Numbered from the stretch's first letter, positions 21,528 to 49,500 are shown. The stretch is DNA of 64,000 nucleotides from a virus (IMGVR_UViG_3300024344_003209:1-64000), one strand, 5' to 3'. Numbers and translations are program-made. Notes: generated by a model from the sequence alone, not told the origin.

Positions 21528-21548
21528 ATTGTTTGCTAATGTTTTAAT

Positions 21549-24077: not shown

Positions 24078-24085
24078 GTCAATAC

Positions 24086-24114
24086 ATTATACGCTAAACC
24101 GAAAAATAAGTCAA
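24086..24114 (-). promoter_or_regulatory. sigma70-type promoter (near-leaderless)
   Basis: TTGACT-17-TATAAT, 8 nt before ATG. Confidence 0.8.
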
Positions 24115-24116
24115 CA

Positions 24117-24797: not shown

Positions 24798-24970
24798 TTT
24801 AATTTTCCTAAGAGCTCAGATATTTCGTTATCTGATTTATTTATTCTCTTGATAAGGTTTTTTGTTTCTTCTGGAGCATGTTTTAGCGCAAGACGGAGTA
24901 TGTCCATCCAGTTTACATTATTTTTGCTCCTTACTTCCTGTATTGCATCTATGACTTCTAAATCTTTCAT
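24794..24970 (-). CDS. 58-aa helical protein (not in ORF track)
   Basis: MKDLEVIDAIQEVRSKNNVNWMDILRLALKHAPEETKNLIKRINKSDNEISELLGKLK; ATGA overlaps at both ends fill the gap exactly. Confidence 0.8.
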   Translation of the reverse strand: MKDLEVIDAIQEVRSKNNVNWMDILRLALKHAPEETKNLIKRINKSDNEISELLGKLK

Positions 24971-25407: not shown

Positions 25408-25421
25408 CTTACTTTTCGTTA

Positions 25422-26429
25422 TTAAAATCTTTCTGTGTAGATTTCCAAGCCAGATATTGCTTGGTCTACATCAAAGTCCGCTGAAACTTTTTGTCCTATT
25501 GCAAATTCGTAGTTTATAGCGGGTATGTCATATTCAAAACAGGGTCTTTTTGTTGTTATGTTATCTTCTGACAAAATATCTCCTTTTTTTATTTGTTTTT
25601 TAGCTACGATAGATCTCATAGCAAACCTAAATTTCTCTTCAGATTTAGTAAAATGAGAATCCTTGACGCCGCATGCTTCTTCCGTAAACCTAATATACTC
25701 AACCATTTTTTGTAACTCGTCTGCCTCTAATGCAAATTTATGATCTGGCCCGATTAGGTTTCTATCTAAAGTAAAATGTTTCTCTATTACTTGAGCGCCA
25801 AGAGCAACAGCTAGTGATGGAGTTAGTATGGAGGTTGAATGATCAGATAAGCCGACCTTGCAATCGAACCTTAAACTTTTACTTGAAAACATAGACTTCA
25901 AATTTAAATCTGAAGTAGGAGTTGGGTAAGCGTTGTTGCAGTGTAGGAGAGTAAGCTCATTAGAGTGCTTCTCGCATATATCAAATATCTTACCTAAATA
26001 GTTAGCCGGAAAACCTATCCCTAGTGATATAACTAAGGGTAATTTAGAAGAAGCTACCATCTCGACGAATCTAAAATCTGTTGATTCAAAACCGGAAATT
26101 TTCAATCTATTAACACCTATGCCGACTAACTCTTCTACAGCCTTCTCGTCAAAAGGGGTAGACATAAATTCTATACCTTTGCCATCACAATATGACTTAA
26201 GCTGAGGTTGCCACTCTCTTGGCATTTCTATTCCTTTAATGAGGTTGTTTATGTCTTTGTAACCAGCAAAATCTGGTGTGTTTTTTCTGTATAGAGTGTC
26301 AGAAGAATAAGTCTGGAACTTTACAGCGTCACAACCAGAGACCACAGCTAAATCAACTAGCTCTAAGGCTTGTTTAAACTTTCTGTCGTGGTTGGCTCCT
26401 GCCTCAGCTATGATAAAAGTCTTATTCAT
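25422..26429 (-). CDS. nonulosonic acid synthase (NeuB/PseI/LegI family) with C-terminal SAF domain
   Basis: IIAEAGANH, AVKFQTY, STPFD, LLHC...YP, GLSDH, IEKHFTLDR...GPDH, RSIVA. Confidence 0.92.
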   Translation of the reverse strand: MNKTFIIAEAGANHDRKFKQALELVDLAVVSGCDAVKFQTYSSDTLYRKNTPDFAGYKDINNLIKGIEMPREWQPQLKSYCDGKGIEFMSTPFDEKAVEELVGIGVNRLKISGFESTDFRFVEMVASSKLPLVISLGIGFPANYLGKIFDICEKHSNELTLLHCNNAYPTPTSDLNLKSMFSSKSLRFDCKVGLSDHSTSILTPSLAVALGAQVIEKHFTLDRNLIGPDHKFALEADELQKMVEYIRFTEEACGVKDSHFTKSEEKFRFAMRSIVAKKQIKKGDILSEDNITTKRPCFEYDIPAINYEFAIGQKVSADFDVDQAISGLEIYTERF

Positions 26430-27504
26430 TTATTATCTTTATTATTTTATCTAAATCTTGTTTAGTTAAATTTTGATGAATGGGTAGATTGATTACTCTG
26501 TCTTCTAGGGACTCTGAGTTTTCAAGACTAACATTAAGGCATTTATCTTTGTAGTATTTAGTTTTGTGCAAAAGCGGATAATGAAAAGATGCTGCTGCCC
26601 CTTTATTAATAAGCTTACGTCTTAGCTCGGTTGAAGATAACTGCGATTTTAAAATGAGAGTGCATAGGTAGTAAGATGAATTTTTGTCATGCTTGGTAAA
26701 GTAGCCTATGTTTTTTAATTCAGATTTTAAATATTCATAGTTACTTTTCCTTATATTAATATTTTTTTGAACGCTTTCCATCTGCCCTAAGCCTATAACA
26801 GCATTTATATTATTCATATAAAAATTAAAACCATCTCCTACTATATCGTAAGAAAGATCCGTATTTTTTCTACCAAAATTTCTGTAGTCTCTTACGTAAG
26901 AGTCTGCTTCGCTGTCATTTGTAGCTATCAAGCCTCCATTAGCCATTGTAAGTGGTTTTATTGGGTGGAAAGAAAAGAATGCATAGTCATAATCTATTCT
27001 AGGATTCAAGCAATGAGCAGAGTCTATAACTATAATATCATTCCAATTAGTATCTTTGACTCTTTCTATTAAGCCGGATATATCTGAAATACCTCCGTAT
27101 AAAACAGGCATAAAAACAGATTTATTAAAAGTTGCGTTATGTTGCCTCTCTAAATGAAATCGTCTTATATCCCAATAAGAATCAAAATTTACTGACAGAT
27201 TTTCATCTACATCTAAAAAATAAACATTATGACCATTAGCCATTGCTGCCCAAGCTGGAGAAGTAAATCCTATAGATGGAGTGTACACATCGCAAGACCC
27301 ATGCTTGCTGTAAAGATAAGAGAATAAGCAAAAGGCGGCGGAAGAAGCAGAATTTATACCTATATTATAGTCTTTTTTGGAAAAAGATTTGAACGATTGC
27401 TCGAACTTCGACACTTCTGAGCCAAAACCTAAAGATCCACCTCTAAGTAAATCAGAGACAGACTTTATTGTGCTTTCTTCTATTGTGGCTTCGAAGCAGT
27501 TCAT
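26422..27504 (-). CDS. PLP-dependent sugar aminotransferase (DegT/PseC-like)
   Basis: IDSAH, FSFHPIKPLT..NGG, GFNFYM and LPIH motifs. Confidence 0.88.
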   Translation of the reverse strand: MNCFEATIEESTIKSVSDLLRGGSLGFGSEVSKFEQSFKSFSKKDYNIGINSASSAAFCLFSYLYSKHGSCDVYTPSIGFTSPAWAAMANGHNVYFLDVDENLSVNFDSYWDIRRFHLERQHNATFNKSVFMPVLYGGISDISGLIERVKDTNWNDIIVIDSAHCLNPRIDYDYAFFSFHPIKPLTMANGGLIATNDSEADSYVRDYRNFGRKNTDLSYDIVGDGFNFYMNNINAVIGLGQMESVQKNINIRKSNYEYLKSELKNIGYFTKHDKNSSYYLCTLILKSQLSSTELRRKLINKGAAASFHYPLLHKTKYYKDKCLNVSLENSESLEDRVINLPIHQNLTKQDLDKIIKIINE

Positions 27505-28838
27505 GAGTGAAAGAAGTTCATTGAGTAATAAAGTTTTCTCTCGTATACTTCTGGTTTCCTGAAAAATTCTATATGAGAGCCAATTTCTGCGTTATTCCAA
27601 TGAGCATATTTAGGCCCTCTTAAAATCCTATATAAGAGCTTGAAATTTAATTTATAAGATACAAATCTTTCGTCGCTAAAGTCTGCCTTATTTATGACAT
27701 TATATCCGCTTCCGTCGGCAGAAATCTTTAACATCTTTTCTTCTGGTAAATAAATGTAGATATTAGTATTAGTGGAAAAAGCTAGCTCTTCTCTTTTCTT
27801 GTTATATCTATTATAGGCTTCTGGTATTAATGATATTATAGAACTTAAACTAGGCTCTTCATCTTTGTCAAATATATATTTTTTATTTATTAAAACCTCT
27901 TCGCAGTGTTTTATTTGAGCCTCTCTATCTAAGGGTTTGTATTCTGGAATTGATTCGTTGTTAAGATTAAAAGAGGAAAAAGAGTTTAAGAGTAAGCCTT
28001 TACTTGAGTTGTTCTTTTCTTTGTAGAAATATAAAGCTTCGTCTAGAGTTGGCACTACCCTAAATCTCTCTAATTTAGCATTTCTACCAGATAGAACGTA
28101 AGTTCCAGCGAAGGGCATGTAGTATTTTGGTTGGACTTGATTTATGTAATCCAAACCCATATTAAGAAAATGATTTTTCTTTTTTACGCCATATCTATTA
28201 AGTTTATCTTTGTCAGAGTAACATGACCAACATTGAGGGTAAGACCCTGCTCCTGCATAACCAACTAAAAGCAAGTCAACAGGCTTGTGATTTTTTAAGG
28301 CTCTACTTAATGCGGTCTTGGAAAGCTCGTAAGGGCAATCATTTACATTAAGTATGCAATAACTAGAACTCTCAAATACAGACATTGTGTCTATACCTGT
28401 AGAGCCGCCGTCTACGCTTTTTGATTTACCGCACCCAAAGAATTTAAAACATATTTCTGGGTTGCAATCGTCAGAGGCATATATATGAATGTTAAGATCC
28501 GCTCCACATTTAAACTTTTCTCCGTGTTTTAACTCTATGACGTTTCTTCCTAATCTAGTTAAATTTCTTTTTAGGAATGGCTCATCGTACTTATGTATAA
28601 GCACAGGTATATCTTTTCTTATTCTCTTTAATGTCTCTTCACTAAGGTGGTCAGGATGTATGTGGCTAATATAAATATAATCTACGTCGTCGAACATAGA
28701 AAAATCCACCTCATCTAAAGAAGGGTGAATAGTCCAAGAGCCATAATATTCATCCCCAACTAACCAAGGATCACATAAGACTTTAGTGCCTTTGTTCTCT
28801 ATTAAAACTGCTGCCGAAGAAATATGAGTTATCTTCAT
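27501..28838 (-). CDS. metallo-beta-lactamase-fold protein resembling CMP-Neu5Ac hydroxylase (no Rieske domain)
   Basis: CDPWL.G..YYGSW, YIYISHIHPDHL, ILNVND, YAGAGSYP and PFAG resemble the CMAH catalytic domain. Confidence 0.7.
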   Translation of the reverse strand: MKITHISSAAVLIENKGTKVLCDPWLVGDEYYGSWTIHPSLDEVDFSMFDDVDYIYISHIHPDHLSEETLKRIRKDIPVLIHKYDEPFLKRNLTRLGRNVIELKHGEKFKCGADLNIHIYASDDCNPEICFKFFGCGKSKSVDGGSTGIDTMSVFESSSYCILNVNDCPYELSKTALSRALKNHKPVDLLLVGYAGAGSYPQCWSCYSDKDKLNRYGVKKKNHFLNMGLDYINQVQPKYYMPFAGTYVLSGRNAKLERFRVVPTLDEALYFYKEKNNSSKGLLLNSFSSFNLNNESIPEYKPLDREAQIKHCEEVLINKKYIFDKDEEPSLSSIISLIPEAYNRYNKKREELAFSTNTNIYIYLPEEKMLKISADGSGYNVINKADFSDERFVSYKLNFKLLYRILRGPKYAHWNNAEIGSHIEFFRKPEVYERKLYYSMNFFHS

Positions 28839-28839
28839 T

Positions 28840-29829
28840 TTATTCTAATCCTGACTTTATTAGTGAGATAAGATGGCTTATATCATCATTTATATGTAGC
28901 GAAGAATTCAACTCTCGACCTTCGTACTTAGGCCAGTCTGACTGATAATTTATCTTGCTGTACTGAGGTCTCACTTGGATTAGATCATGAGTCGGAGCTA
29001 AGAAAGAAAAAGGCAATTCTGTGATAGAGAGCATATCCTCATGTATCTTTTCTCCGGGCCTCATTCCTGTAATTTTAGTTGGTATATCTTCTCCGTTTTT
29101 ACCGGAAATATTTTTTACTGCCTCTATAATAGACCCCATCTTAAAAGAATTTATTTGAGGTATAAAAACCTCACCACCTAAAGAATGGATAATAGCGTTT
29201 AACACTGTATCAACTGCGTCGTCTAGGGTAAACAAAAACCTAGAACATTCTAAAGAAGTGATGTTTATGCGTTTGTTTTCTTTGATGAGATCCATCCATA
29301 GTGGAATAAAGGATCCTCTGCTGGCTATAACATTCCCGTACCTTACTGATAGGAACTTAGTAGAGTTGGAGTTATAGTTATAGTTAGTAAAAATTCTTTC
29401 TGCTATGAACTTGGTGGAACCATAAACATTAACAGGCATACAAGCTTTATCTGTTGATATTAAAGCGCACTTGGAGACATCTGACTCTAAGCTAGCTCTA
29501 GCAACGTTATCAGAGCCTTCTATATTTGTCTTTACGCATTCGTCTGGATGACGCTCCATATCGTCCACCCTCTTCATGGCAGCGGTATGTATAACCAGAT
29601 CGGGTCTTTCTAAAAGCAAGGAGGTCTTAAGCTTTCTGTAGTCTCTGACATCGCCAATAATTGTTTTTACGTCTTTATCTTGTCCGAAATAAAGAGCCTG
29701 TTTTCCTTCATCCCTGCTGTAAACAACTAGTGAAGAATTGCTAGATTTAAGTCTTTTTATAAGACTTCTACCGAGCGATCCGGTACCGCCTGTTATGAAT
29801 ATTTTTTTATCTGAAAAGAAATCTGACAT
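28840..29829 (-). CDS. UDP-GlcNAc 4,6-dehydratase (PseB/FlaA1-like)
   Basis: TGGTGSLG, YSRDE.KQ, STDKA..PVNVYG.TK, RYGNV..SRGS, RPGEKIHE. Confidence 0.9.
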   Translation of the reverse strand: MSDFFSDKKIFITGGTGSLGRSLIKRLKSSNSSLVVYSRDEGKQALYFGQDKDVKTIIGDVRDYRKLKTSLLLERPDLVIHTAAMKRVDDMERHPDECVKTNIEGSDNVARASLESDVSKCALISTDKACMPVNVYGSTKFIAERIFTNYNYNSNSTKFLSVRYGNVIASRGSFIPLWMDLIKENKRINITSLECSRFLFTLDDAVDTVLNAIIHSLGGEVFIPQINSFKMGSIIEAVKNISGKNGEDIPTKITGMRPGEKIHEDMLSITELPFSFLAPTHDLIQVRPQYSKINYQSDWPKYEGRELNSSLHINDDISHLISLIKSGLE

Positions 29830-29838
29830 TCAACATTA

Positions 29839-29867
29839 ATTATAATATTAACTTAGTAATAAGTCAA
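29839..29867 (-). promoter_or_regulatory. sigma70-type promoter
   Basis: TTGACT-17-TATAAT, 9 nt before ATG. Confidence 0.8.
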
Positions 29868-29869
29868 CA

Positions 29870-30661
29870 TTAAAAATTTCCTATTTTAGACAAAACATTG
29901 CAATCATGTCCTGCTCCTAAATTATTAAATACCACATCTTGACCTATCTCTTTTTGTAAATACGTTTTTAAGGTTAGATAGTGGTAGTAAAGTAATTTAT
30001 AAGGGTAGCCAGCTTTGCAGGGTTTGTTTTTTTCAAAAGAATGATTGTTTAAGTCTCCGACTTTGTAATCTTTAGAAGGTGGGCCATCTATGCCAGCAAA
30101 ATCAACTTGGCTAGCCCCTAGTAAAACTGCTAAAATAATTAGCTTAGGAGCAACTCCTATTTTGCCTTGAAATCTTAAAACACAATCAAAAACATTATTG
30201 GGTATTGTGTCATTTAATACTTTTACATTATCTGAACTTTTATTGTAGTCTTCAAAGCCTACTAATGTGTTGTTTTTAGTTACATAATCAATAAACTTAT
30301 CTCCTTTCAAATCTACCTCGTCGCATAATAAAATTAAATCTACTTTGCATTTAGATAGTTTTTCATTTAAAAAGAAATGATTGCAAGAAAATATATGGTC
30401 ATATTCATCTGGATTCCAATCGTACCAATTTGTTGTAGGGCCAGCGCCTAAAACTAGGATCTTTTTATTTTTAAACTTTTTTAATTCTGGGTTGTCTCTA
30501 TATATTATCTGAGAAGTTTTTATTAAATCTTTTTGTAAGAAATCGTATCTATTTAAATAATTAGCCCCTCTAGTTTTATTATTAGCGAAGTTTTCGGAGT
30601 TAGCTATAAAACAAGATAAAGGATCACTGTTTTCCCAAGTTAAATCGTAAAAATTCACCAT
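29870..30661 (-). CDS. Maf/DUF115-like (sialyltransferase-like Rossmann fold) protein
   Basis: KILVLGAGPT, FSCNHFF and LGASQVDFAGID motifs. Confidence 0.6.
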   Translation of the reverse strand: MVNFYDLTWENSDPLSCFIANSENFANNKTRGANYLNRYDFLQKDLIKTSQIIYRDNPELKKFKNKKILVLGAGPTTNWYDWNPDEYDHIFSCNHFFLNEKLSKCKVDLILLCDEVDLKGDKFIDYVTKNNTLVGFEDYNKSSDNVKVLNDTIPNNVFDCVLRFQGKIGVAPKLIILAVLLGASQVDFAGIDGPPSKDYKVGDLNNHSFEKNKPCKAGYPYKLLYYHYLTLKTYLQKEIGQDVVFNNLGAGHDCNVLSKIGNF

Positions 30662-31491
30662 TAGCCTCTTAGTTTTCTTCTAACTGGAAACTCAGAAGCT
30701 GATATGTATATTTCTCCATCTCCGTGAGCTTTTTCTAGTTCTCTTACACCACTAACTAACTTAAATAATCCTTGAGGCTCAACTGAGCTCATATGATCAG
30801 ACCCCCACATAGTTCTATCTAAGGTAACATGCCTTTCAATTATACTGGCCCCAAGGTAAACAGAAGCGACAGAGGTTCCTAGCCTGAACTCATGCCCGCT
30901 GTAACCAACTTCGCAATCGTATTTTTCTTTAAGTGTTTTTATGCAAGAAAGATTTAATTCATCTATAGGTGCTGGGTAGGTAGAGTTACAATGGAGAACG
31001 GCTAAATTCTTAGTGTATCGCCTTATAAGGGCAACGCAATCATCTATTTCTTGCTCAGAACTCATACCTGTTGAAATAATTATCTTTTTACCTGTTTTTG
31101 ATGCCTCTGCGACTAAGTTTATATTTGTAATCATAGCCGAAGGTATTTTAATAAACGGTATGTCGTACTGCTGTAAAAACTTCAAACTATCTAAATCCCA
31201 AGGAGAGGCGCTCCAAGATACGTTTTGTTGCTTGCAGTAGTTATCTATCTCGTTATATTCTTCTTGATTAAATTCTACTTTATATTTATATTCTAAGTAG
31301 GTCATCTCGCCCCAAGGAGTTTTCCGTTTTATATTTTTTTGATGTTCTGGAACGCAAACGTCAGGGTTTCTTTTCTGGAATTTAACAGCATCACATCCTG
31401 CTGCAGCAGAAATATCAATAAGTCTTTTGGCTGTATCAAGGCAACCATTGTGATTAATGCCGATTTCCGCTATAATGTAAGTCTTTTTCAT
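30661..31491 (-). CDS. second nonulosonic acid synthase (short NeuB type, no SAF domain)
   Basis: IIAEIGINHNG, VKFQKR, LHCNSTYP, GYSGHE, IERHVTLDR.MWGSD. Confidence 0.92.
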   Translation of the reverse strand: MKKTYIIAEIGINHNGCLDTAKRLIDISAAAGCDAVKFQKRNPDVCVPEHQKNIKRKTPWGEMTYLEYKYKVEFNQEEYNEIDNYCKQQNVSWSASPWDLDSLKFLQQYDIPFIKIPSAMITNINLVAEASKTGKKIIISTGMSSEQEIDDCVALIRRYTKNLAVLHCNSTYPAPIDELNLSCIKTLKEKYDCEVGYSGHEFRLGTSVASVYLGASIIERHVTLDRTMWGSDHMSSVEPQGLFKLVSGVRELEKAHGDGEIYISASEFPVRRKLRG

Positions 31492-32144
31492 GACAATATG
31501 TTTAAACTAACTCCTTTAGAGGATAGCCAATCTTTTATGCTGGGTACAGCTTTTGAATTTAGTACTATGTCCCAAGGTATTTCGCAACCTTTATTGGAAA
31601 CAGAGCCTTCTTTATAGAAATGACTTCCGTGTCTATCTAGATCCCAACCTATTGTAGTTATGGAGGATACTCCAATATGTAAAGCCATGTAGAGAACAGT
31701 CTCCAGCATTATGCCGGGACCTGTGCATCTTTCTGTGCAGGTTTTACTTATCAGAAAATCATCATAATTTTTCTTAAAAGCTAATACATTTTCTTTACCT
31801 CCTATTTCTTCTATTAAAGGTATTCTAAAAAATATATCATGATGTTGTTGTGGGTTCCATCTGGCTCCTAATTCATAGTTGCTGCTAGCGACAACAATTT
31901 CAGGCTTATGATCAACATACCTGTAGGGTATATTCATATAATCTATAGGAAGATTTGAGCAATTCCAGAAATGAAAGTCAGTTTCTTCTGGAAACCTATC
32001 GTAAGCTTGCTTGATAGAAAATACTAGATTATTTTTTAATTTATTTCTAGTATCTTTATTATCGTGTTTGTTTAAAGATGGGCCGCAAGCTAATATGTAG
32101 CAATCTTGCCCGTTTTTGCAATTTTCTAAATCTTTAAGATCCAC
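31488..32144 (-). CDS. Maf/DUF115-like protein
   Basis: CYILACGPSL, ALHIGVSSITTIGWD and HFY motifs. Confidence 0.6.
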   Translation of the reverse strand: MDLKDLENCKNGQDCYILACGPSLNKHDNKDTRNKLKNNLVFSIKQAYDRFPEETDFHFWNCSNLPIDYMNIPYRYVDHKPEIVVASSNYELGARWNPQQHHDIFFRIPLIEEIGGKENVLAFKKNYDDFLISKTCTERCTGPGIMLETVLYMALHIGVSSITTIGWDLDRHGSHFYKEGSVSNKGCEIPWDIVLNSKAVPSIKDWLSSKGVSLNILS

Positions 32145-32154
32145 TATACTTGGT

Positions 32155-32183
32155 ATTATAGCATCAACTTAAAAATTTGTCAA
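32155..32183 (-). promoter_or_regulatory. consensus sigma70 promoter
   Basis: TTGACA-17-TATAAT with extended -10 TG. Confidence 0.85.
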
Positions 32184-32185
32184 CA

Positions 32186-32701
32186 TTAAGTTGGAAGTAT
32201 TTTTATGAGCTGATCGTTAACTCTAGCAAGACCCTCTGGTGTGTCTTTGCCTTTCATTTTAATTTTAATTTTTGTTAAATTTTCTTGACCTCTGGTCCCT
32301 GTTATTTGAGCGGATAGCTTATTATTGTTGTTGTTTATCTCGTCTTCGAAGTGGCTAAGATTTACAGATAGCTCCATCTCGAGCTCGTCAATAGCTAAGT
32401 GAGCATTATTAGTCAGGGTTATTAAGGGTATATGTGTCTCTGTTACTTCTCCGTTATTTCCGGGAAGTTTTACCTTAAAAGTTTTTGCGTTCCCATCGCT
32501 GTCAAAATATGTAGACATTACCCTGCCTAAATGCTCGGTCTCTACTTTTCTTTGAGCAAAAGCGACAGAATTATATATAGACTGAACTAACTTATCTAAT
32601 GAATTAGAATCCTCCTGACCACCTTGCCCCTCGCTTGAAAGCGAGGGTTGGGGTGGTTCGGTGGGAGGTGAAATTCCTAAAGAATAATTAGTTAATCCCA
32701 T
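32186..32701 (-). CDS. DUF2589-like protein (short paralog)
   Basis: IPLITL....L.IDELE.EL and PEGLARV motifs shared with the neighbour. Confidence 0.75.
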   Translation of the reverse strand: MGLTNYSLGISPPTEPPQPSLSSEGQGGQEDSNSLDKLVQSIYNSVAFAQRKVETEHLGRVMSTYFDSDGNAKTFKVKLPGNNGEVTETHIPLITLTNNAHLAIDELEMELSVNLSHFEDEINNNNNKLSAQITGTRGQENLTKIKIKMKGKDTPEGLARVNDQLIKILPT

Positions 32702-32714
32702 TTATTGTCTTGAT

Positions 32715-33344
32715 TTACGGGCCTGCGGGGGCGGGTGCTGGGGCTGAAGCTCCACCTTGAGGCGCGGGTTTGATAGCGTCTCCTAATATATCCAGCACTT
32801 TCATTAGACCTTCTGGGGCTCCATCATCTCTTGCTTCACAGTGAACCGTGTACCTAGCTGAGTTATCACTCTTTCTTGTGTTTTCGCTCTTACTACCTAC
32901 AGAAGCTGTAACTGAAGCGCTAACAGGAGACCACCAAGCTTTATAATTCGCTTTAGTCGTAACGTTCGCTGTCGTTGAACTTTTGCTTTCGCTAGTAGAT
33001 TGAACCTTCATATCAAAGTCAATCTTAACATCTTTAACAGATAAATTTGGGGTATTTACGATAGCTAAAAGAGGAACCTTCATGGTTCTAGGTTCGGCTA
33101 CAGTAGTAGTGGTTTCTACTCCATTACCATCAGTACTTTTGTGCTCCACAACAGCATCGTAGTCGAACTCAACAGTTCTGGCACTAAGTTTTCCTGTGTT
33201 AGAATCTTTTTCTAGCCCTACTTCTTCGATAAATTGCTCGGTAATTCCGGCTAATTTACCTTGGGCTTGAGCAGCCGCGATAAGTGGGTTTGCGATGAGC
33301 TCGCCAATTGGGAGCCCTTTAAATTGATCTGATATACTAGACAT
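32715..33344 (-). CDS. DUF2589-like protein (long paralog with Ser/Thr-rich insert)
   Basis: F.GLPI.ELIA.PL.AAA.AQ..LA, VPLLAIV..PNL.V..V.IDFDM.V, SARY.V...A, PEGL.KVLD.L. Confidence 0.8.
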   Translation of the reverse strand: MSSISDQFKGLPIGELIANPLIAAAQAQGKLAGITEQFIEEVGLEKDSNTGKLSARTVEFDYDAVVEHKSTDGNGVETTTTVAEPRTMKVPLLAIVNTPNLSVKDVKIDFDMKVQSTSESKSSTTANVTTKANYKAWWSPVSASVTASVGSKSENTRKSDNSARYTVHCEARDDGAPEGLMKVLDILGDAIKPAPQGGASAPAPAPAGP

Positions 33345-33367
33345 AATATTTATATGTTATACATTAA

Positions 33368-33376
33368 ATTACACTA
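33368..33376 (-). promoter_or_regulatory. TAGTGTAAT motif (candidate phage late promoter)
   Basis: AATAGTGTAATTTAA upstream of the DUF2589-like pair. Confidence 0.6.
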
Positions 33377-33378
33377 TT

Positions 33379-34170
33379 TCACAACATATGTAGCTTTTGT
33401 TTGGCTTGAGCTATCATCCATCTGTCCTTCTTGTCTAAGTGTGAACGAAGGTGGTCATCAATCTGCCTAAGCATCTCTGGTTTCTCTCCCATATGATGAT
33501 CTCTAACTTTCTGAATTCCTTGTACTACTTTAAGAAGCGTACCTGTCGCTCCTGAGGCTGGCATAGCAAAGGGGGCTACCATTGTTACTATCTTAAATCC
33601 TATGGCTAAAACAACTAGGAATACGACAACACCAACAATCCAATATACTTTGCTCATTAGGCTTGAGTATTTAGTAGCTTGTAGTGCATTTTCTTGGTTT
33701 ATTGCTTTTAATTTGGTTTGTGCGTTTTGTAATTGACCAGACAAAATTCTATTTTGGTTTTGAATAGCTATTAGATCTTTATCCATAGTAGCTAAAATTT
33801 CTTTCCCTTTCTTTACTTCTGATGGGTCGGTTGAAAGTAGACCGTTTACCATTTGATCAGACTTCATAGCGTTCTCCATCTGAGGAGGTCCAAGTGCTGT
33901 AACCCCTCTAGTGGTCATTTGTTTAGCTACTTGAGACTGAGGTGAGGGGTCTGGGTCTTTTTGTAGGGCTTGGTCTGCTGCGTATACAAACGTCCTTCCG
34001 CTTTCTACTTTTTTTGTATCGTTATTAGCTTTCTCTTGTTGTATGTTCTCTACAACTTTCTCTTGTTTGTTAAACTTTCCTAATGGAGTAGCGCAGCCAC
34101 CTAGAACGACCAAAGCTAGAGCCATAATATAAAAAACATCTTTAAAATAGTTATTTTCTTTTTCTCTCAT
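33379..34170 (-). CDS. lipoprotein with coiled coil and C-proximal TM helix (unimolecular-spanin-like architecture)
   Basis: Lipobox LALVVLGG|C, heptad-rich middle region, TM segment VYWIVGVVVFLVVLAIGF. Confidence 0.55.
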   Translation of the reverse strand: MREKENNYFKDVFYIMALALVVLGGCATPLGKFNKQEKVVENIQQEKANNDTKKVESGRTFVYAADQALQKDPDPSPQSQVAKQMTTRGVTALGPPQMENAMKSDQMVNGLLSTDPSEVKKGKEILATMDKDLIAIQNQNRILSGQLQNAQTKLKAINQENALQATKYSSLMSKVYWIVGVVVFLVVLAIGFKIVTMVAPFAMPASGATGTLLKVVQGIQKVRDHHMGEKPEMLRQIDDHLRSHLDKKDRWMIAQAKQKLHML

Positions 34171-34706
34171 AGATACTTATCCTTTATTACTTCTAATACC
34201 TCTTTACAGTTATGTACGTTTACATCCTTTTTGCAATTTTTTAAACTCTCTTTTATATGATTATCGTATGCTTTTATAGTTTGTTCAAAACTCTCTTCTA
34301 TTTCGTTTTTTTCGCAGTAATTTCTCAAAGCTCCAGAGAATAAAACAGTTACGATTAAGCAAACAGCAGCAGATTTTTCATTCTTCTCTTCATTTTTTTT
34401 TCTTGTTATATCTAAGTTTGGTTTTAAGTCTTTTTGGGATAGGCAAAAGAAGTAATTGTTTAGAGAGTTAGAGAGAAATATACAGTCATCTTCTGATAAT
34501 CCCTTTTTGGCCCCCTCTTTAAAAACCATCAACTGAGACGAGATTTTAGAGTCAATATTTTTTAAAATTTTTTTATTAAGCCTCTTTTTAGATGCATGTT
34601 TAACTAACTCAAGCCTATCTGATTCTTCCTCTGTTAGTTTCCTTACTACTTTCTCGTCGGAATTTAAAAGCTTAGCTATATAGGATACTGTTGAGCTGTT
34701 GAGCAT
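34167..34706 (-). CDS. hypothetical protein
   Basis: 179-aa ORF in operon. Confidence 0.6.
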   Translation of the reverse strand: MLNSSTVSYIAKLLNSDEKVVRKLTEEESDRLELVKHASKKRLNKKILKNIDSKISSQLMVFKEGAKKGLSEDDCIFLSNSLNNYFFCLSQKDLKPNLDITRKKNEEKNEKSAAVCLIVTVLFSGALRNYCEKNEIEESFEQTIKAYDNHIKESLKNCKKDVNVHNCKEVLEVIKDKYL

Positions 34707-34707
34707 G

Positions 34708-35049
34708 TCATTGCTTTTCTTTGTATTTCATGCCTTTTCTTTTTTCAGAATACTCTTTTTTGGCTTTATTTCTTATGGGGTCTGATCCTCCTGTTACTTC
34801 TTTTCGTTTATCGCTAAGCTCTTTTGAGTAATCCCACATATCTCCCATAGTCCCTTTCATATTTTTAGTTTTTTCTGAAAACTGCTGAGAAGAAAATGGA
34901 TCAACGTCGCTATCAATAGCAGCGTTAGGCACTGTAAAGATCCTATTGAAGGTCTTGCCTTCTTCTTTATAGGAATGTTCTTCATTTATTCCTTGGGTGA
35001 CGGATATTATTTCGCCTGTATCTGGATTTTCGTAAAGATATTCTGGCAT
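34708..35049 (-). CDS. FmdB-like (degenerate zinc ribbon) phage protein
   Basis: MPEYLYE...GE...V.Q...E.H......RIF pattern without the Cys residues. Confidence 0.55.
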   Translation of the reverse strand: MPEYLYENPDTGEIISVTQGINEEHSYKEEGKTFNRIFTVPNAAIDSDVDPFSSQQFSEKTKNMKGTMGDMWDYSKELSDKRKEVTGGSDPIRNKAKKEYSEKRKGMKYKEKQ

Positions 35050-35050
35050 T

Positions 35051-36139
35051 TTACAAATCGTAAAGAAGATTCAAAATATCATTAGTAGTTCTTTTGTAAG
35101 TGAACTCTTTCTGAAGTTTAAGCCCTTCTTCGTTAACTCTATTAGATTCTACTCTTTTTATTGCTTTTTCGCAACTCTCAATGAAAGCGTCTTCATTAAA
35201 ATCAAATATCTTACCTTGATTAAACTCTGATCCTTTATGGAAAAACACCCCATCAGCTGAATCTATTTTAGAATCTGGCTCAAGTAAAACGCTGTTTGCC
35301 TCGTTAGCCCATTCCTTATACCCTGTAGCATTTGTTATAACTGCATGCTTACCTATAGCTACAGAGTGAAACTCAGGCAAACCCCATCCTTCGCCGCCAG
35401 AGCAACCTAGGATTATGTCAGCGGAGTTTAAGTAATCATTGTATACATCATTCTTAGACATGAAATCAAGAAATTGTATATTAAAATATTTCTTTCCGCC
35501 TAACATTCTATTGATCAATACTGGCATTTCTTTTTTTAGAAAATGATTGTGTATCGAACATTGCAGGTGGTACTTTTTATCTCCTCCAAATCTTTTAGCC
35601 CAAGACTGAATTACTTTCTGATGTCTTTTTCTTTTTTCTAGCTTTCCGCAAAGATTGAACACTATTCTTTCGTCATCGTAATACTGCTTGTCTAGCTTAG
35701 AAAAATGTAACGAATCAAAACCTAAAGGTATTACGGTGGTGTGACGAACGTCTTCTTTAAGAAAGACATCTTTTGAGTGTTGGCAGGTGAAGGCTAGCTT
35801 ATCAATATTATTAGCTATGTTAATTTCTGACTCAGTTGGGGAATCTAACTCATAAAATGAAAGCATAACATTCCTTCTTGAAGGATTGTCTAATGCAGTA
35901 GCGTTCAAATGCCATAATTGAAAAACTGGATTTTCTTTACTATGTTTCGAAGATGATTTTCTTATGCAGTCCTTAAGCCATTGAATAAATTTAGGATCCA
36001 AACTGTAAGCGGAAATATCTTCGTTTATAGGGAATAAGCAAGGCTCAAGCCCCTGTTTGTATAGCTCATTTAAGATACAAATAGAGACTTGGCCAAAGCT
36101 TAGACCGTTAACAGGTAGTTTTAAAGCGAAATCGCTCAC
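35051..36139 (-). CDS. GT-B (family 4-like) glycosyltransferase
   Basis: GKLEKRK and SGGEGWGLPEF...A.GK motifs. Confidence 0.85.
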   Translation of the reverse strand: MSDFALKLPVNGLSFGQVSICILNELYKQGLEPCLFPINEDISAYSLDPKFIQWLKDCIRKSSSKHSKENPVFQLWHLNATALDNPSRRNVMLSFYELDSPTESEINIANNIDKLAFTCQHSKDVFLKEDVRHTTVIPLGFDSLHFSKLDKQYYDDERIVFNLCGKLEKRKRHQKVIQSWAKRFGGDKKYHLQCSIHNHFLKKEMPVLINRMLGGKKYFNIQFLDFMSKNDVYNDYLNSADIILGCSGGEGWGLPEFHSVAIGKHAVITNATGYKEWANEANSVLLEPDSKIDSADGVFFHKGSEFNQGKIFDFNEDAFIESCEKAIKRVESNRVNEEGLKLQKEFTYKRTTNDILNLLYDL

Positions 36140-36432
36140 AGCAATGCTTCGCTTGTCTCCTCCTGAGTTTGTGTTTCCGCAGTGGCGGTTGTTGCCTCTC
36201 CTGTTGAACTAGCGGGCCTAGAAAGATAAATCCTAAAGTCAGGAGAATTCTCAGACTTCTTATCTTTATTATGGAAGGCCACTACGTTAATCTTTTTCTC
36301 CTCACCAAAATCTGTTTGGATTTTAATGTGCCCTGAGAAGTATTTACGGCCAGAACCTTGTGCTTCTTTTGTCCACAAGGCTCCTAGCTCTCTCTTCTCC
36401 CAATCGTTATTAGACTTACTTGTATCAGCCAT
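36136..36432 (-). CDS. DUF736-like putative ssDNA-binding protein
   Basis: LGALW.K.....KYFSG.I...K.ENSPDFRIY plus an acidic tail. Confidence 0.6.
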   Translation of the reverse strand: MADTSKSNNDWEKRELGALWTKEAQGSGRKYFSGHIKIQTDFGEEKKINVVAFHNKDKKSENSPDFRIYLSRPASSTGEATTATAETQTQEETSEALL

Positions 36433-36441
36433 ACTCCAATC

Positions 36442-36470
36442 AGTATATTACAAACCTAAACAGTTGTCAA
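36442..36470 (-). promoter_or_regulatory. sigma70-type promoter
   Basis: TTGACA-17-TATACT. Confidence 0.8.
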
Positions 36471-37034
36471 GTTTTTTATTTTAATTTTTAGTATATCTGC
36501 TCCTCTCCTATGTAGATTTATCGCTGTCTGAGAACTAAAACCCAATTTTTTTCCTATCTCAGACCAAGTCATCTTTTTTTCAGAGAAATACCTAAGTGAG
36601 TATACTTCTGAAACCCTTTTATCTTTTATAGATGATAAAGCCTTGTTTAGCTCTTGCATTAGGCTTATTCTTTCCATAGGGTTTATTACGAATAAATTAT
36701 CATCAGTATGTATTTTATTTTTATACCTCTCCTTTAAAGCACATTGCTTTCTAGACTTATTCATTAAATGCAAACATTTATATTTAGTTATATTGCTTAA
36801 CCAAGTACAAAAACTAACACCTTTATCTTTTTTAAAGCTTTTTACGGCTTCATAAATAATCATGTCTTTATCGTCTAAAATATCCGAAGGGTCAGCTCCG
36901 GACTGCTTTATTGAAGATATAAACCTTGAATACATAGAGAGGAAAACTGGAGAGTATCTCTCTATCACAGAAGATAGAGAATCTTCGCATTCTTCATCTT
37001 GTACTTTTTTTATTTGGATATAATAATTTTTCAT
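36456..37034 (-). CDS. phage-encoded sigma70-family RNA polymerase sigma factor
   Basis: Region 2-like YEAVKSFKKDKGVSFCTWL; region 4 HTH LRYF...MTWSEIGKKLGFSSQT. Confidence 0.85.
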   Translation of the reverse strand: MKNYYIQIKKVQDEECEDSLSSVIERYSPVFLSMYSRFISSIKQSGADPSDILDDKDMIIYEAVKSFKKDKGVSFCTWLSNITKYKCLHLMNKSRKQCALKERYKNKIHTDDNLFVINPMERISLMQELNKALSSIKDKRVSEVYSLRYFSEKKMTWSEIGKKLGFSSQTAINLHRRGADILKIKIKNLTTV

Positions 37035-37039
37035 AATTT

Positions 37040-37441
37040 AAAAATAAATAAAAAGGAGGATTCCGCAAGCGGAATCGGCGTATTTTTTTAGTGTTTCGCT
37101 TGCGAGACGAAAGAAAGCTTTTTGGTAATAGGCACACCTCACCCAACTTACATAAGTAACAAAAACAATTACAAAAGAACGCCTTAGCTTCCATATTAGT
37201 TCTATTCGCAGGGGCTTATACCCTTTTCGACCCTTTTATTAAGAGCCTAGCTAATGACTTTCGTAATCTATTTTACTATATGATCTTGTAACAGTAGAAC
37301 TTTCTTAGATGTTACTCCTCTCTAACGCCGCCTGCACCCGCTTGTAGCGTGCTACTATTCAGTAGCTTGAGAAGCCCCTTCGGGGTTGTTGGTCTCTTAA
37401 GAGTTTCCAGACTTGCTTACGCTTAAACTGTTAATCATACT
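37040..37441 (-). ncRNA. candidate ~400-nt structured RNA/leader upstream of the sigma factor
   Basis: Largest intergenic gap in the window; driven by a perfect promoter; several hairpins; ends in hairpin 37059-37076 plus a U-rich run. Confidence 0.45.
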
Positions 37442-37447
37442 TTGAGT

Positions 37448-37490
37448 ATTATAAAATTAGCTTGACTTTTTGTCAAGTCTTTTTTAAAAT
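37448..37490. promoter_or_regulatory. overlapping divergent sigma70 promoters
   Basis: Minus strand TTGACA-17-TATAAT (37476->37448); plus strand TTGACT-17-TAAAAT (37462->37490); inverted repeat CTTGAC-N5-GTCAAG. Confidence 0.85.
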
Positions 37491-37496
37491 TTAAAA

Positions 37497-37901
37497 ATGA
37501 GCAGATTGAATTGGTTTCAGTATGGCATGCAGCTAGCTAGGACAGCTTCTTTAAGAAGTGAAGATCCATACATACAAGTTGGCTGTTGTATTCTTAGGCC
37601 TGATAACAGTATAGCATCTTTAGGATACAACGGAGCTCCTCCCGGAGTAGATATCGATTGGTCAGACAGAAACGATAGAAGAAAACGAGTTATCCATGCT
37701 GAAACAAATGCTTTAAGGTTTATAAGACCGGGAGAAGGAGATAGAATGTTTGTCACATTAATGCCTTGTTCTGAGTGCCTTAAGAATGCAGTGTCATACG
37801 GCATTAAGCGAATATTTTATGAAAAAATTTACGATTTTGATACATCTTCAGAAGAGCTAGCGGTAGAGTTTAAAGTAACACTACAACAAATAAATCCATG
37901 A
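37497..37901 (+). CDS. dCMP deaminase
   Basis: RSED...QVG, GYNG, HAETNA and PCSEC zinc motifs. Confidence 0.93.
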   Translation: MSRLNWFQYGMQLARTASLRSEDPYIQVGCCILRPDNSIASLGYNGAPPGVDIDWSDRNDRRKRVIHAETNALRFIRPGEGDRMFVTLMPCSECLKNAVSYGIKRIFYEKIYDFDTSSEELAVEFKVTLQQINP

Positions 37902-39164: not shown

Positions 39165-39730
39165 TGAACTTGTCTGAATTAAACATGTTCGATAGAGTAT
39201 ACTTCGAGGCAGACTTACCCTTAGATAAGCTGCCAGAAGAAATCCGAGGCCAAGATTTTTCTGAGTTAGAATTCCAAACTTCTGACCTAGGAAACGGTAT
39301 GGACACTTGGTCTGTGTCTTCAGCAGGAGAATTATTTTTTCATGAAGTGGATCAGGAAATAGTTAAAGACTGCGATGAAGGCTTTGAGATTAAATCGAAC
39401 CATAAAGGAATACGCAAGGCAGAAGAAACAACTTCTATTAATTTTTATAGAATTTTCGAAGGCGAAGAGAAAGACTACTGGGTTTCTTTTGATACCCTTT
39501 TTCACAAAGGAAAACTTGTATTGGTGGAGCTGAACGAATTAAATGAAGTAGATAAAGAAGAAAGGCAAAAAGCTAAGTCTCACGCAGAACAATTCATGAA
39601 TGACATGAAAGCTAAGATGAATAAAAAGACTAATGTATTTTTCTCTCCTTTTAAATTTATTATAGGGCTGTCTTTAGTTGCTTTGAATTGGCTTGGCAGA
39701 AACTTATCTAAAATCCATTCTAAAATATGA
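39164..39730 (+). CDS. hypothetical phage protein, likely paralog of 3094..3636
   Basis: MFD, FQTSDL, INFY and F..LFHKGKL motifs. Confidence 0.6.
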   Translation: MNLSELNMFDRVYFEADLPLDKLPEEIRGQDFSELEFQTSDLGNGMDTWSVSSAGELFFHEVDQEIVKDCDEGFEIKSNHKGIRKAEETTSINFYRIFEGEEKDYWVSFDTLFHKGKLVLVELNELNEVDKEERQKAKSHAEQFMNDMKAKMNKKTNVFFSPFKFIIGLSLVALNWLGRNLSKIHSKI

Positions 39731-40317
39731 TCGGAATTAGTGGAATAGCAGCGTCTGGTAAGGATTTATTTTGCCGTCTCTTATTAAGAGAGGTTAAAGG
39801 GCACAGGATAGCTTTAGCAGACCAACTCAAGGAAGAGGTAAGACCTTACATCGTTTCTAAGTTCGGTATTGATGTAATAAATTGCTCAACTGAATCTAAA
39901 AACAAAGTGAGAGACCTCTTGGTTTTTTATGGAGGCTTAAAAAGATTCCAAACAGGAGGCAAATATTGGACTGATATAGCTCAGAAAAAAGTACAAGGGT
40001 GCAAAGGGACACCAATTGTAACAGACATTAGGTATGACGATCATAAAAATGACGAAGTCGACTGGGTAAAAGGAAAAAATAAAGGGGTTTTAGTTCATAT
40101 AAGAAAATATTGGGAGACTGAAGGTTTATTCGAGATGAAAAGGCATTACTTTGACCCCCCAAATGAAGACGAAAAAAGAAATGATCCAAAACTTAGGTCT
40201 AAAGCAGATTATCATATTGAATGGCCTCATTTAGAAAACCAAACAACCAAACAAATCGAAGATACTTTAGAGCCATTTGCAAAAGAGTTTGCTGAATGGT
40301 ATAAAAACAAGAGCTAA
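39727..40317 (+). CDS. deoxynucleoside monophosphate kinase
   Basis: IGISGIAASGKD P-loop, ALAD.LK, R.LL..YG, IVTDIRY...NE. Confidence 0.8.
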   Translation: MIGISGIAASGKDLFCRLLLREVKGHRIALADQLKEEVRPYIVSKFGIDVINCSTESKNKVRDLLVFYGGLKRFQTGGKYWTDIAQKKVQGCKGTPIVTDIRYDDHKNDEVDWVKGKNKGVLVHIRKYWETEGLFEMKRHYFDPPNEDEKRNDPKLRSKADYHIEWPHLENQTTKQIEDTLEPFAKEFAEWYKNKS

Positions 40318-46237: not shown

Positions 46238-46576
46238 CTACCATTTGTCAATAGGACATTTCTCTTGAGTAAAGTACGCTTTAAGCGGCACTACGCATCC
46301 ACACTTTTGGCATCTTTCTCCTTTGTCTGAAAACCAAGGGCAGCTTCTGCATATGGAAGTTCTTTTTGAGTAAAGTTCCTGTTTAGCTACTATTTCTTTT
46401 CCTTGTAAAGCTGCCTTTGTAGTATTAGCGATACTTCTTGTTATATTTTTCGCCATTTTGAATCCGCTAGGCATCTTCACTACTTCTTTTTTTTCTAAAT
46501 TTTTTAAAGATCTAGTTCTAGATGTACTTCCGAAGGAAGGCTCTTCTCCCGCTTTTTCTTTATACTCGTTAGCCAT
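46238..46576 (-). CDS. Cys-rich small protein (DUF6171-like)
   Basis: R..IC.SC......RC.KCGC...LK......CP..KW. Confidence 0.65.
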   Translation of the reverse strand: MANEYKEKAGEEPSFGSTSRTRSLKNLEKKEVVKMPSGFKMAKNITRSIANTTKAALQGKEIVAKQELYSKRTSICRSCPWFSDKGERCQKCGCVVPLKAYFTQEKCPIDKW

Positions 46577-49500
46577 TTTTCATCAAGTCGAACCTTAGTT
46601 GCTCATCACTAATCATAAAGACTTTTCTACCAAAAGGCGAACATTTATGAACACAAGGGCCTGCTTGGAAGTTTTGGTTAAACAAACCATCGGATCTTCT
46701 AACTATCATTTCTGTTTTGTTCGTACCGTAAACAGCAAGAGCCTGAGTAAATTCTGGCTCTATTTTAAATGTTTGTTTTCCAGCAGACGGATCTATTCTT
46801 TCTCTTGATGAAAACTCAAATTCTTGCATAGATGGCCCTATGATATCATCTCCATCAGCTAAGCCAAAATATTCTTCGTAACTTTGTACGTTACCTGTTC
46901 CACCTCTAACATCTCCGTCGGTGCATAAGCTGTGATAGCCTTGTTCCTTGTCGACTGTTCCTATCTTTTCGTTTTTACATATACCTCTAGTTTGCAGAAT
47001 TGTTCCATTTATGTTTTCTATCTTACCTAATCCATCTTCTCCTACAGCGCTCTTAAGGAAGCTAGGCGAAGGCACTATCTCAAATTCTGTCCATTCTATA
47101 GTTGTCTTTAAAAACGTAGACCAAAAAGGTTTTCCGCTTATCTGACACCCAAATATTATTTCGTTCTCGTAAGAAGTGTCTATTATTTCAGATCCAGCTA
47201 TATTGACAATAGAAACATCAGTATCCATAGTTTCGCTTGTAATATCATATTCCTCACTTGTATAAACTAGTTCGCCCCCGAACGCAAAAGCTCTTCTTTT
47301 ATTTAAGTTTGGCAAATCTAATCCTTTCTCTTGCGTAAGAACTTTTCCAGCACTATCTCCAGATACATCTCCATACGAAGCAGGGAAACAAAATACCCCA
47401 TTCTCTTCTGGTATATTTACCTTATTAGGCAGGCCTATATCTTTGGGAATATAATTTGCATCAAACACTTGATCTGTTTTAAACTCTTCAATATCATAAG
47501 TAGCTTTAGTTATATTTGACTTTACTTGACCCTGCAGCCCTTTAAAGCCGGAGAACCAAGCTCTCTTATATTTCTTTTCTTTATGGTCGTAAAAATCTAT
47601 AAAATTTTGCTTAGATAAAGCTTCGTATGTTAATGCTTGATAACTTTCATTTATTCTAACAATCTCTTCTCCTGCATTGCTAGGATCTTCCGGAGAGAAT
47701 GTCATATTAGCCATATCCTCTACATACCTATATTCATATTTTCTATATTTTCTTACCTTTGCGAACACAGGAACATAAGCCCCCAAGAATCTCATGTTAT
47801 TAATAGTTCTAACATAATTATTAAAGACTTCTCCAGTAACAGGAGACGTAGGATTAATACCAAACCCTTTAGGTAGGCTAGGATTTTGCTCTCTTGAAAA
47901 AGAACTTAACCAAGGTTGAGATTTATTGGCTATCTCATTTTTTACAACTCTATATTCCGCTATAGAATTATTATTAACTATTGCTGTTAAGACAGGTTTA
48001 GTTGGTTCTGGGAAAACTTCCTTCTCGCAACTGCCGTCTTCTTTTATAGTTACAGATATCTCTTGAGTAGCTTCTCTTTCGTCTGCTTCATATAGCCCTA
48101 AATGCTTACTGCTTTCTGTGCCTTGTAAATCGCTATATTCATCTTCTGTTGAAATTGCGTAAGATTGAGTATCTTTTATTTCTATGTTACGTTCGTTTAA
48201 ACTATCTTCTCTTGCTTTAATTTTTCTTTCTATATCTTCTACAGTGTTCCAGTTATCGCTTTCTGATACAGCATTTAAAGTATTAACATATTTAGTTAAT
48301 GTAGTTTTAAAATCTGCTATGGCTTGAGCACTTTCTGAGTCATCTACCCCAAAAGACTCCTCGACATATTCTGCTAAAGCTTCTGCCTCATCAGCTAATA
48401 TACCAAAATTCTCTTGGCATTCTCCCGTATCTTCTGTAATATTATTAACTGTGACATCGGCCGTCTTTACCCCTTTATGCTCTGAAAGCGATATATAAGG
48501 CATCTGACGCTCTTTATAGTCTATTGAAATCGAAGAAGCCTGAGTGGCAGTAGCCTGTTTACTTAGTGTGAATTGAGTCAAGCTGTTTATCTTTTCTACT
48601 CTTGTGTCAGAGGGTACGCCAGTTCCCGAGACTCTAGCTCCTAATATTATATTCTTTTGTCCATCGTGATTAACTAGTTTACTATTGTTAGTTAAATTAA
48701 AAGTATGAGTAAAGCTAGAATCCTGTATAACCATACTATGAAAAACAAAAGGAATATCGCCCTTCGCCCTATCTATAACTTTTTGCTTGCCTGCTTCAGA
48801 ACTTACATCAGAATATCCAGCCCCCGAGTCAGAAACCTCTACATAAATAACTTTTCCTGACTCAATATGAGCTATAGCTTTCGAGGTTTTAGTTAGTAAT
48901 CCTTTTTTAGGCTCCGGATCTTCTATTACAATGTCAGGAGCGACCCTGTAGTCAGAACCACCGGACTCTATAACTACCTTAGATATTCCTCCTACTGCTA
49001 TTTTATCTACATAGGATGCTTTTAGTCTATGGGAGAGTCTATACTTATATAATCTCTCATGAGGTATATTAATGTCGTAATTATCAGCTACCCTAGAGTA
49101 TTCATGACAACCAAAAAGACTTACCCCTTCCTTAGGAATAGATATAGAATTCCCTATTAAATGGTTCTCAGCGAGATCAAGGCTAAATATCCCATCTACA
49201 GACTCGCCTATATCAGACTGCCTTATTACAGATCGCCAATCAAAGGGAAGCCTCATTAACTCATTGCGTCTAAAGTGTTTTAACACCCCTTCGTCGTAAT
49301 ACTGGAAAGTCTCATTTTTTATAGCCATCCTGTAAGTGCCAGTAAACGAACCCGCAGTACCAGAAGAACCAGAACTTCCCGAGCTCCCTGAAGGACTAGC
49401 CCCTAAGGAGACTCTAAAATTTTGTTTGTCGTCTATCTCTATGCTTAAATTTTCCTTTCCTGAAACCTGAACCCAGCTACCAGACTCTAATCTCTGTAAG

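Follow-up and report, generated by a model that had tools for sequence, protein, structure and literature searches.

Comparative sequence analysis of a new structured noncoding RNA between a sigma70-type promoter and the sigma factor gene of an uncultured phage lineage

Genetic Organization of the Locus

The window analysed in the present study, a whole stretch of 64,000 nt, is part of a 99-kb IMG/VR virus record with an estimated completeness of 67%. The region at 37035-37496 is the gap between two divergent genes, encoding a phage sigma factor on the minus strand and a dCMP deaminase on the plus strand. The features at and around this gap are as follows:

36136-36432: gene of a DUF736-like protein (98 aa; acidic tail at the C terminus)
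36442-36470: promoter of the DUF736-like gene (score 11/12), within the 3' end of the sigma gene
36456..37034, minus strand: phage sigma-70-family gene, ECF-sized (192 aa)
37448..37476, minus strand: sigma70-type promoter of the RNA, TTGACA-17-TATAAT (score 12/12)
37461..37477, no strand: perfect palindrome CTTGAC-N5-GTCAAG, containing the -35 boxes of both divergent promoters
37497-37901, plus strand: leaderless dCMP deaminase gene, divergent to the RNA and sigma

The sigma gene product matched Pfam Sigma70_r2 with 26.3 bits (cut-off, 24), its match to Sigma70 r4 remained under the cut-off, and its homologues were named as sigma-70 family in their source annotation. The DUF736-like gene was found 3' of sigma in every relative and throughout a wider phage clade, and its mRNA would be nearly leaderless because just 9 nt separate the -10 box from the ATG. 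The leftward block contained genes for replication and nucleotide metabolism, including a DNA polymerase, a helicase, a UvsX-like recombinase and a ribonucleotide reductase. Seven minus-strand sigma70 promoters in 17600-37500 scored at least 11/12, and the block was organized as many promoter-driven units with essentially one good terminator. Elsewhere in the window, one ORF of 5689 aa on the minus strand (46569-63638) represented a giant protein gene; the phage is ~150 kb.

The original prediction had pointed to a perfect promoter about 400 nt ahead of the sigma gene, and this promoter was found 413 nt upstream of the sigma ATG (37034). From its position, the transcription start was predicted at ~37441. 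The promoter was kept in all 31 relatives that reached this point, with TTGACA, a 17-nt spacer, and either TATAAT (28) or TATACT (3). The sequence thus met the criteria for a sigma70-type promoter (-35 TTGACA, -10 TATAAT, 17-nt spacer); the activity is only predicted. The palindrome, which spans the -35 boxes of the RNA promoter (minus strand) and the dCMP deaminase promoter (plus strand), was invariant in 31/31 relatives, and the chance expectation for such palindrome sites in the window was 0.11. The palindrome could act as an operator for a dimeric regulator.

Relatives of the Locus and Their Conservation

A search with the sigma protein yielded eight IMG/VR contigs carrying the RNA unit. 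A 20-nt pattern from the RNA yielded 35 metagenome stretches, including a Tara Oceans scaffold, and 34 of these contained the homologous region. The same eight IMG/VR contigs were recovered with a second, independent RNA pattern. The RNA pattern was not found in 185,579 GTDB species genomes, and neither the DNA of the locus nor the sigma protein had a match in the cultured-phage database. We take the lineage to be marine, an assumption based on the Tara contig and on the other sample identifiers. After the removal of duplicates, ~30-34 distinct RNA sequences remained, and 26 near full-length sequences formed the alignment A5.

The gene order was constant wherever the contigs reached: the divergent dCMP deaminase, promoter, RNA, terminator and sigma. 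The nucleotide identity to the window was 75-96% in the RNA core, 62-91% in sigma and 66-88% in the dCMP deaminase, and the RNA core was the most conserved of the three in 14/14 comparisons. In 34 of the relatives, the invariance of the 20-nt segment was forced, because they were collected by that very pattern. In addition, the relatives belong to one fairly shallow clade (RNA identity, at least 74%), and shared ancestry accounts for some of the covariation counts. An origin of the region as a decayed copy of a neighbouring gene was rejected, as no tblastn similarity was found.

Conserved Fold of the RNA

To evaluate the fold, we scored a curated 79-pair model on A5 and compared it with controls in which the pairing partners were slid by 1-3 columns, as well as with 500 shuffles. 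The proportion of cells in standard pairs was 98.4% for the model and 40-46% for the slid controls. Changes on both sides of a pair (compensatory changes) were found in 30 pairs of the model and in 6-11 pairs of the controls, with covariation scores of 0.276 and 0.06-0.09, respectively. None of the 500 shuffles attained the values observed for the model. RNAalifold on A5 predicted 66 pairs, of which 21 showed compensatory changes. The model pairs contained 288 G·U cells and 8 A·C cells; because G·U far exceeds A·C, the RNA was assigned to the minus strand. Folded as a whole, the 407 nt did not reach a lower minimum free energy than shuffled sequences (z = -0.2). When each domain was folded alone, the helices of the model were returned (domain 1, z = -2.46; domain 2, z = -1.45).

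Overall, a 7-bp pseudoknot connects two domains, and these are followed by a 3' hairpin, a spacer that varies among the relatives and a terminator with covarying pairs. The conserved RNA core comprises ~315 nt, and the predicted whole transcript comprises ~390 nt. The structural elements of the core are as follows:

37279..37441, minus strand: domain 1, supported by covariation; P1 closes over P2, P3, P4, P5, P6 and P7
37435-37440 with 37279-37283, and 37428-37432 with 37290-37294, minus strand: closing helix P1, with compensatory changes
37350-37367, minus strand: optional hairpin P6
37295..37301, minus strand: 5' strand of pseudoknot T1 (AGUUCUA), joining domain 1 to domain 2
37167..37268, minus strand: domain 2; P8 closes over P9, P10, P11 and hairpin P12 (GC-GNRA-GC)
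37258-37268 with 37167-37177, minus strand: closing helix P8 (11 bp)
37254-37257 with 37191-37194, minus strand: helix P9
37198..37204, minus strand: 3' strand of pseudoknot T1 (UAGAACU), within domain 2
37129..37145, minus strand: 3' hairpin P13 with the invariant 5' arm AGUUGGGUG

Helix P1 opens 1-2 nt past the predicted RNA start. In the most divergent relatives (L041, L043 and L055), the sequence of P1 was wholly different and yet remained complementary. Domain 1 contained hairpin P2 with a GNRA loop, hairpins P3 and P4, helix P5, the optional P6, and P7, and compensatory changes were present in each of P1, P5, P6 and P7. P6 varied in both length and sequence, covaried fully and was absent in 6/26 sequences. 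In domain 2, compensatory changes were detected in 7/11 pairs of P8 and in 4/6 pairs of P10, and one pair of P9 (211/276) occurred as U-A in 10 sequences, C-G in 8 and U-G in 7. The covariance model R1, which covers domain 2, matched the genome once (120.7 bits), and the RNA is therefore single-copy there. The three inverted repeats described in the original prediction were all present: the repeat at 37375-37385 corresponded to hairpin CCCCGAAGGGG, that at 37351-37366 corresponded to hairpin GCTACTgaatAGTAGC, and that at 37093-37108 formed a hairpin that is real in the window but window-specific and located in the unconserved spacer. A long-range inverted repeat joining 37207-37217 with 37372-37382 was rejected, as it was specific to the group of the window and not conserved.

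For T1 (7 bp), 181 of 182 cells were paired, with one double change (C-G in L046) and 10 single changes that preserved a wobble pair. For P13, 98% of the cells were paired, and its changes were of the one-sided G-C/G-U kind only. The 3' arm of P13 was equally compatible with GGGUGCAG at 37332-37339 in domain 1. The two invariant GGGUG motifs (37332-37339 and 37129-37145) may therefore compete for CUGUGYCC, and the RNA could switch in conformation, forming either a local hairpin or a helix of domain 1 with the tail. Judging from its invariant unpaired segments, GNRA loops and pseudoknot, the RNA may adopt a compact tertiary fold with a role in partner binding or catalysis. In summary, the fold was conserved among the relatives, so that the absence of a conserved structure, which would have refuted the original prediction, did not hold.

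Terminator and Transcription of the Sigma Gene

The core is followed by two elements that precede the sigma gene:

37077..37128, minus strand: variable spacer
37038..37076, minus strand: intrinsic-terminator-like hairpin (37059-37076, 7 bp, CUUG loop) and U-rich run

The spacer ranged from very short to ~70 nt among the relatives, and neither its length nor its sequence was conserved (columns 344-397 of A5). The RNA unit ends in the terminator hairpin and the U-rich run, which were supported by the terminator scan and lie 24 nt ahead of the sigma ATG, in agreement with the predicted distance of about 25 nt. The sequence reads GATTCCGC-TT-GCGGAATC (37076-37059) followed by CTCCTTTTTATTT, with CTCCTTTTTA as the tail reported by the scan. 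Compensatory changes occurred in 4/8 model pairs of the stem, 99.5% of the cells were paired, and the stem variants included GAUUCCG/CGGAAUC, CACUCCG/CGGAGUG and CACUGCG/CGCAGUG. It was the strongest minus-strand terminator-like site in the 20 kb of 17600-37500 and the sole convincing one there. The requirements of an intrinsic terminator (G+C-rich hairpin and U-run) were met in sequence; the termination itself is only predicted. The terminator is probably leaky, because CUCC, a suboptimal 4-nt segment, separates the U-run from the stem. The hairpin was missing only in L042, which has the full RNA core without a terminator (L042:797-1132), and the RNA of this relative would thus be fused to the sigma message.

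In 28/30 relatives, the stretch from the RNA core to the sigma ATG contained no sigma70-like promoter. A strong promoter follows only at the end of the sigma gene (36470-36442), with no ORF other than sigma between it and the RNA terminator; hence sigma alone depends on the RNA promoter. Transcription of sigma is apparently possible only via read-through of the RNA terminator. One antiterminator candidate, in which GUGGAA of the core pairs with UUCCGC of the terminator, was rejected because the pairing was broken in L034 and L044 (arm changed, core unchanged), and no conserved pairing overlapping the terminator stem was found in the alignment. The evidence on the originally proposed attenuator was divided: the terminator was conserved and most relatives had no sigma promoter, but the spacer was variable and a conserved antiterminator was lacking.

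Comparison with Known RNA Families

The whole window was scanned with the 4227 models of Rfam 15 at gathering thresholds, and no match was obtained. Permissive scans (E up to 10) of 36900-37600 and of nine divergent relatives returned only chance-level matches with E values of at least 0.3, far under the gathering thresholds. ARAGORN detected no tRNA gene and no tmRNA gene in the whole window. The original impression that the RNA is unlike tRNA, tmRNA or RNase P RNA was thus borne out. The 5' end of the RNA pairs with position ~160 and not with the 3' end, which does not fit tmRNA or tRNA; for RNase P RNA, in which CR-I and CR-V make up the P4 pseudoknot and P1 connects the 5' and 3' ends, no model matched at E up to 10, and the sequence and position of T1 differ. 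The fold of two multi-helix domains with a pseudoknot does not fit 6S RNA, a mostly double-stranded rod of ~180-200 nt with a large bubble at its centre, and no 6S model matched. As to an attenuation leader, the position in a 5' leader with a terminator directly after it fits, and a conserved antiterminator pairing was not found. Processive antitermination elements (put, EAR or nut) are fitted by the arrangement alone, with no homology to EAR or to other models. In addition, GAAAGUUC shows a short resemblance to the RNase P motif GAAAGUCC, as does AAGUUGGGUGAAC to the T-box motif. The resemblances to RNase P, T-box and boxA/boxB were set aside, as they are short and backed by no model.

A survey of candidate structured RNAs in IMG/VR has described motifs of 29-151 nt (PMC10690425). 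No description of the present RNA was found in the literature searches; overlap of a fragment with the motifs of that survey is not excluded.

Taken together, the conservation above that of the neighbouring genes, the compensatory changes and the absence of Rfam matches uphold the earlier suggestion of a new ncRNA. It is strongly supported that the RNA represents a new family of structured ncRNA on the minus strand that is not protein-coding. Both the family and its link to the sigma gene are new.

Absence of the RNA from the Wider Phage Clade

Sigma homologues of 35-50% identity were found in at least 189 further IMG/VR loci with the same downstream genes. In this wider clade, a gene of a 196-aa P-loop protein lies immediately upstream of sigma, in the place of the RNA, as observed in at least 80 more distant phages (L064-L143, ~1900-2500). 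No copy of the RNA was detected in the wider sigma-bearing clade by nhmmer, by synteny, or by R1 on 46 loci and three genomes of 114-142 kb. In the window, the P-loop gene is located at 39727-40317 on the opposite strand, in the rightward block. It seems that the P-loop gene has moved away and that the RNA module has taken its place. Since the wider clade keeps the sigma operon without the RNA, the RNA and its terminator form a separable, lineage-specific module that is not needed by the sigma family. One member of the wider clade (L136, IMGVR_UViG_3300009104_002192, 142 kb) was classed as a provirus by IMG/VR and might help to identify the host.

Proposed Function and Alternative Explanations

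With modest confidence, we favor the explanation that the element encodes a discrete early ncRNA and that its leaky terminator serves as a gate for sigma. Host sigma70 RNA polymerase would initiate at ~37441 from the consensus early promoter immediately after infection, and the transcript would fold into two helical domains clasped by the 7-bp pseudoknot, with the small 3' hairpin after them. Most transcription would end at the hairpin and U-run (37076-37040), freeing a discrete RNA of ~390 nt, and the leaky terminator would let some polymerases read through to make the message of sigma, a gene without its own promoter. In this way, the element would be both an abundant early RNA and a gate that holds sigma low. 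In the absence of expression data, the read-through into sigma and the leakiness are inferred, and both the ends of the transcript and the efficiency of termination are predicted. Any function in trans, such as binding of a protein, RNA polymerase or ribosome, or catalysis, is likewise inferred, and no trans target or partner of the RNA was found. The variation of the spacer between core and terminator in length and sequence favors a discrete gene over an overlapping expression platform, as does the wider clade, where the sigma operon occurs without the RNA. Several points count against a discrete gene: in all relatives the terminator is immediately followed by sigma, an arrangement that would suit a dedicated cis-regulatory leader just as well; L042 keeps the RNA without the terminator; and the transcript as a whole folds no more stably than the shuffles.

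The main alternative is that the RNA acts in cis as a regulatory leader of sigma and the leftward operon, which we regard as possible but rather doubtful. In one version, the nascent RNA would make its own polymerase resistant to the terminator, as in HK022 put, Bacillus EAR or nut/boxA; in the other, the RNA would sense a ligand or protein, set the passage through the terminator and time the early-to-late switch. The invariant order of promoter, RNA, terminator and sigma in ~30 relatives and the lack of a promoter for sigma itself agree with such a leader. A put-like action on the polymerase would tolerate a variable distance to the terminator, and the two GGGUG motifs, which could compete for one strand, make a switch possible. 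The segment CUCUUAA-N12-CCCCGAAGGGG, which is loosely similar to a boxA followed by a boxB hairpin, was counted for such a leader as a weak lead only, but its boxA-like part varies exactly at the predicted loop positions of hairpin P3. Furthermore, no Rfam antitermination or riboswitch family matched, no conserved pairing overlaps the terminator, and the two-domain pseudoknotted core of 315 nt far exceeds put (~70 nt) and EAR (~120 nt). There is also little need for processive antitermination, because the downstream genes have strong promoters of their own and no good terminators lie among them.

The remaining explanations concern what kind of element occupies the region. A strongly diverged representative of one of the known classes (RNase P RNA, tmRNA, 6S RNA, a group I intron or ribozyme, T-box, or a GOLLD/ROOL-like RNA) would share the size, the pseudoknot and the GNRA tetraloop hairpins typical of such RNAs, and the short resemblances noted above point the same way. 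We consider this very unlikely, since none of the Rfam models matched in the window or the nine divergent relatives, ARAGORN found no tmRNA, and the fold fits none of the classes: the ends are unpaired with each other, a rod with a central bubble is lacking, and no flanking exons are present. The original prediction had also offered a replication origin at the strand switch, where the transcript would serve as a primer or R-loop RNA, as in ColE1 RNA II or T4 oriF/oriG. Its location at the divergence of two gene blocks, the strong promoter followed by a very AT-rich stretch, and the replication genes in the leftward block are consistent with an origin. However, no specific support was obtained: there were no iterons, initiator boxes or other repeated boxes, but only AT-rich chance pairs, and no skew switch independent of gene orientation. 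The GC skew flips again at 46 kb together with the gene orientation and thus tracks the coding strand rather than replication. An element acting at the DNA level would not need the selection on RNA pairing, including the 288 G·U pairs, and a protein gene occupies this position in the wider clade; an origin is therefore highly improbable. Finally, the region might encode a small protein, for which the 66-aa ORF (36994-37194) and other short ORFs are candidates. In all relatives, ~10 conserved codons (MEAKAFFCNC) came after an ATG or GTG, but these codons coincide with the 3' strands of P9, P12 and P8, which covary with their partners. The ORFs of the relatives that start from AUG/GUG-GAAGC span 8-66 aa with differing frames and stops, the frame being lost after ~10 codons; the ORF of the window crosses the terminator and 40 nt of sigma, and no Pfam family matches it. 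The conservation of this ORF as a protein, which would also have refuted the RNA, was thus not observed, and a coding function can practically be dismissed.

Beyond the discrete ncRNA with a leaky terminator, a more speculative and on present evidence unlikely proposal is that this large pseudoknotted RNA is a phage riboregulator of a new class, acting directly on the host expression machinery. Such a riboregulator could bind its own RNA polymerase or a small molecule reflecting the infection state, and so time the passage through the terminator into sigma; a new ribozyme or RNA-only assembly is equally unexcluded. To our knowledge, large conserved pseudoknotted RNAs are rare. Earlier examples of them proved to be ribozymes or riboswitches, or formed unusual RNA assemblies. 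If the riboregulator proposal is true, RNA would control the early-to-late switch in an abundant lineage of ocean phages, and if the RNA controls the read-through, it would provide the first known RNA-gated phage sigma switch. The RNA is predicted to be the first product of the early leftward unit in an uncultured ocean phage; if it acts in trans, it would be a new abundant early phage RNA that precedes any phage protein. The ~30 natural variants with clear covariation are sufficient to design probing, cryo-EM and binding experiments, and the sister phages that have the sigma operon but no RNA offer a natural comparison.

Relation to Known Systems

Several known systems share part of the features of the predicted RNA. 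The pRNA of phi29 (RF00044) is likewise a phage-encoded, promoter-driven, non-coding structural RNA made early, whereas the present RNA has no homology to it, is twice its size, belongs to another phage type and context, and shows no evidence of a role in packaging. Attenuation riboswitches and leaders are likewise located in the 5' leader of a controllable gene with a conserved terminator just ahead of the start codon; in contrast to them, the present RNA has no conserved antiterminator, a variable spacer, a much larger core and no match to an aptamer family. HK022 putL/putR, Bacillus EAR, lambda nut boxA-boxB and the rrn leader likewise place a promoter-proximal RNA ahead of a terminator and early genes, and their distance to the terminator is likewise unfixed. 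Compared with put, EAR and nut, the present RNA is four to five times larger and non-homologous, and the genes downstream of it are served by promoters of their own, with few terminators among them. The ssrS-ygfA unit of E. coli likewise begins with an ncRNA, 6S, and continues into a protein gene, and 6S, a decoy for the sigma70 holoenzyme, is likewise tied to the biology of sigma factors, a tie that rests here on position. Unlike 6S, the present RNA is not a rod with a central bubble and matches no 6S model, and any binding to RNA polymerase is conjecture.

The RNA differs from the large orphan structured RNAs GOLLD (RF01998), ROOL (RF03087), OLE and raiA in that it matches none of their Rfam models, is smaller (core of ~315 nt), has no adjacent tRNA genes, is fixed between an early promoter and the sigma gene, and occurs in one uncultured phage lineage only. 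By analogy, this RNA is nevertheless in kind most like these orphan RNAs, which are likewise long, intricate, supported by covariation and found by comparative genomics, and which likewise combine multiple GNRA-type hairpins, long-range pairings and carriage by phages with a function that is unknown.
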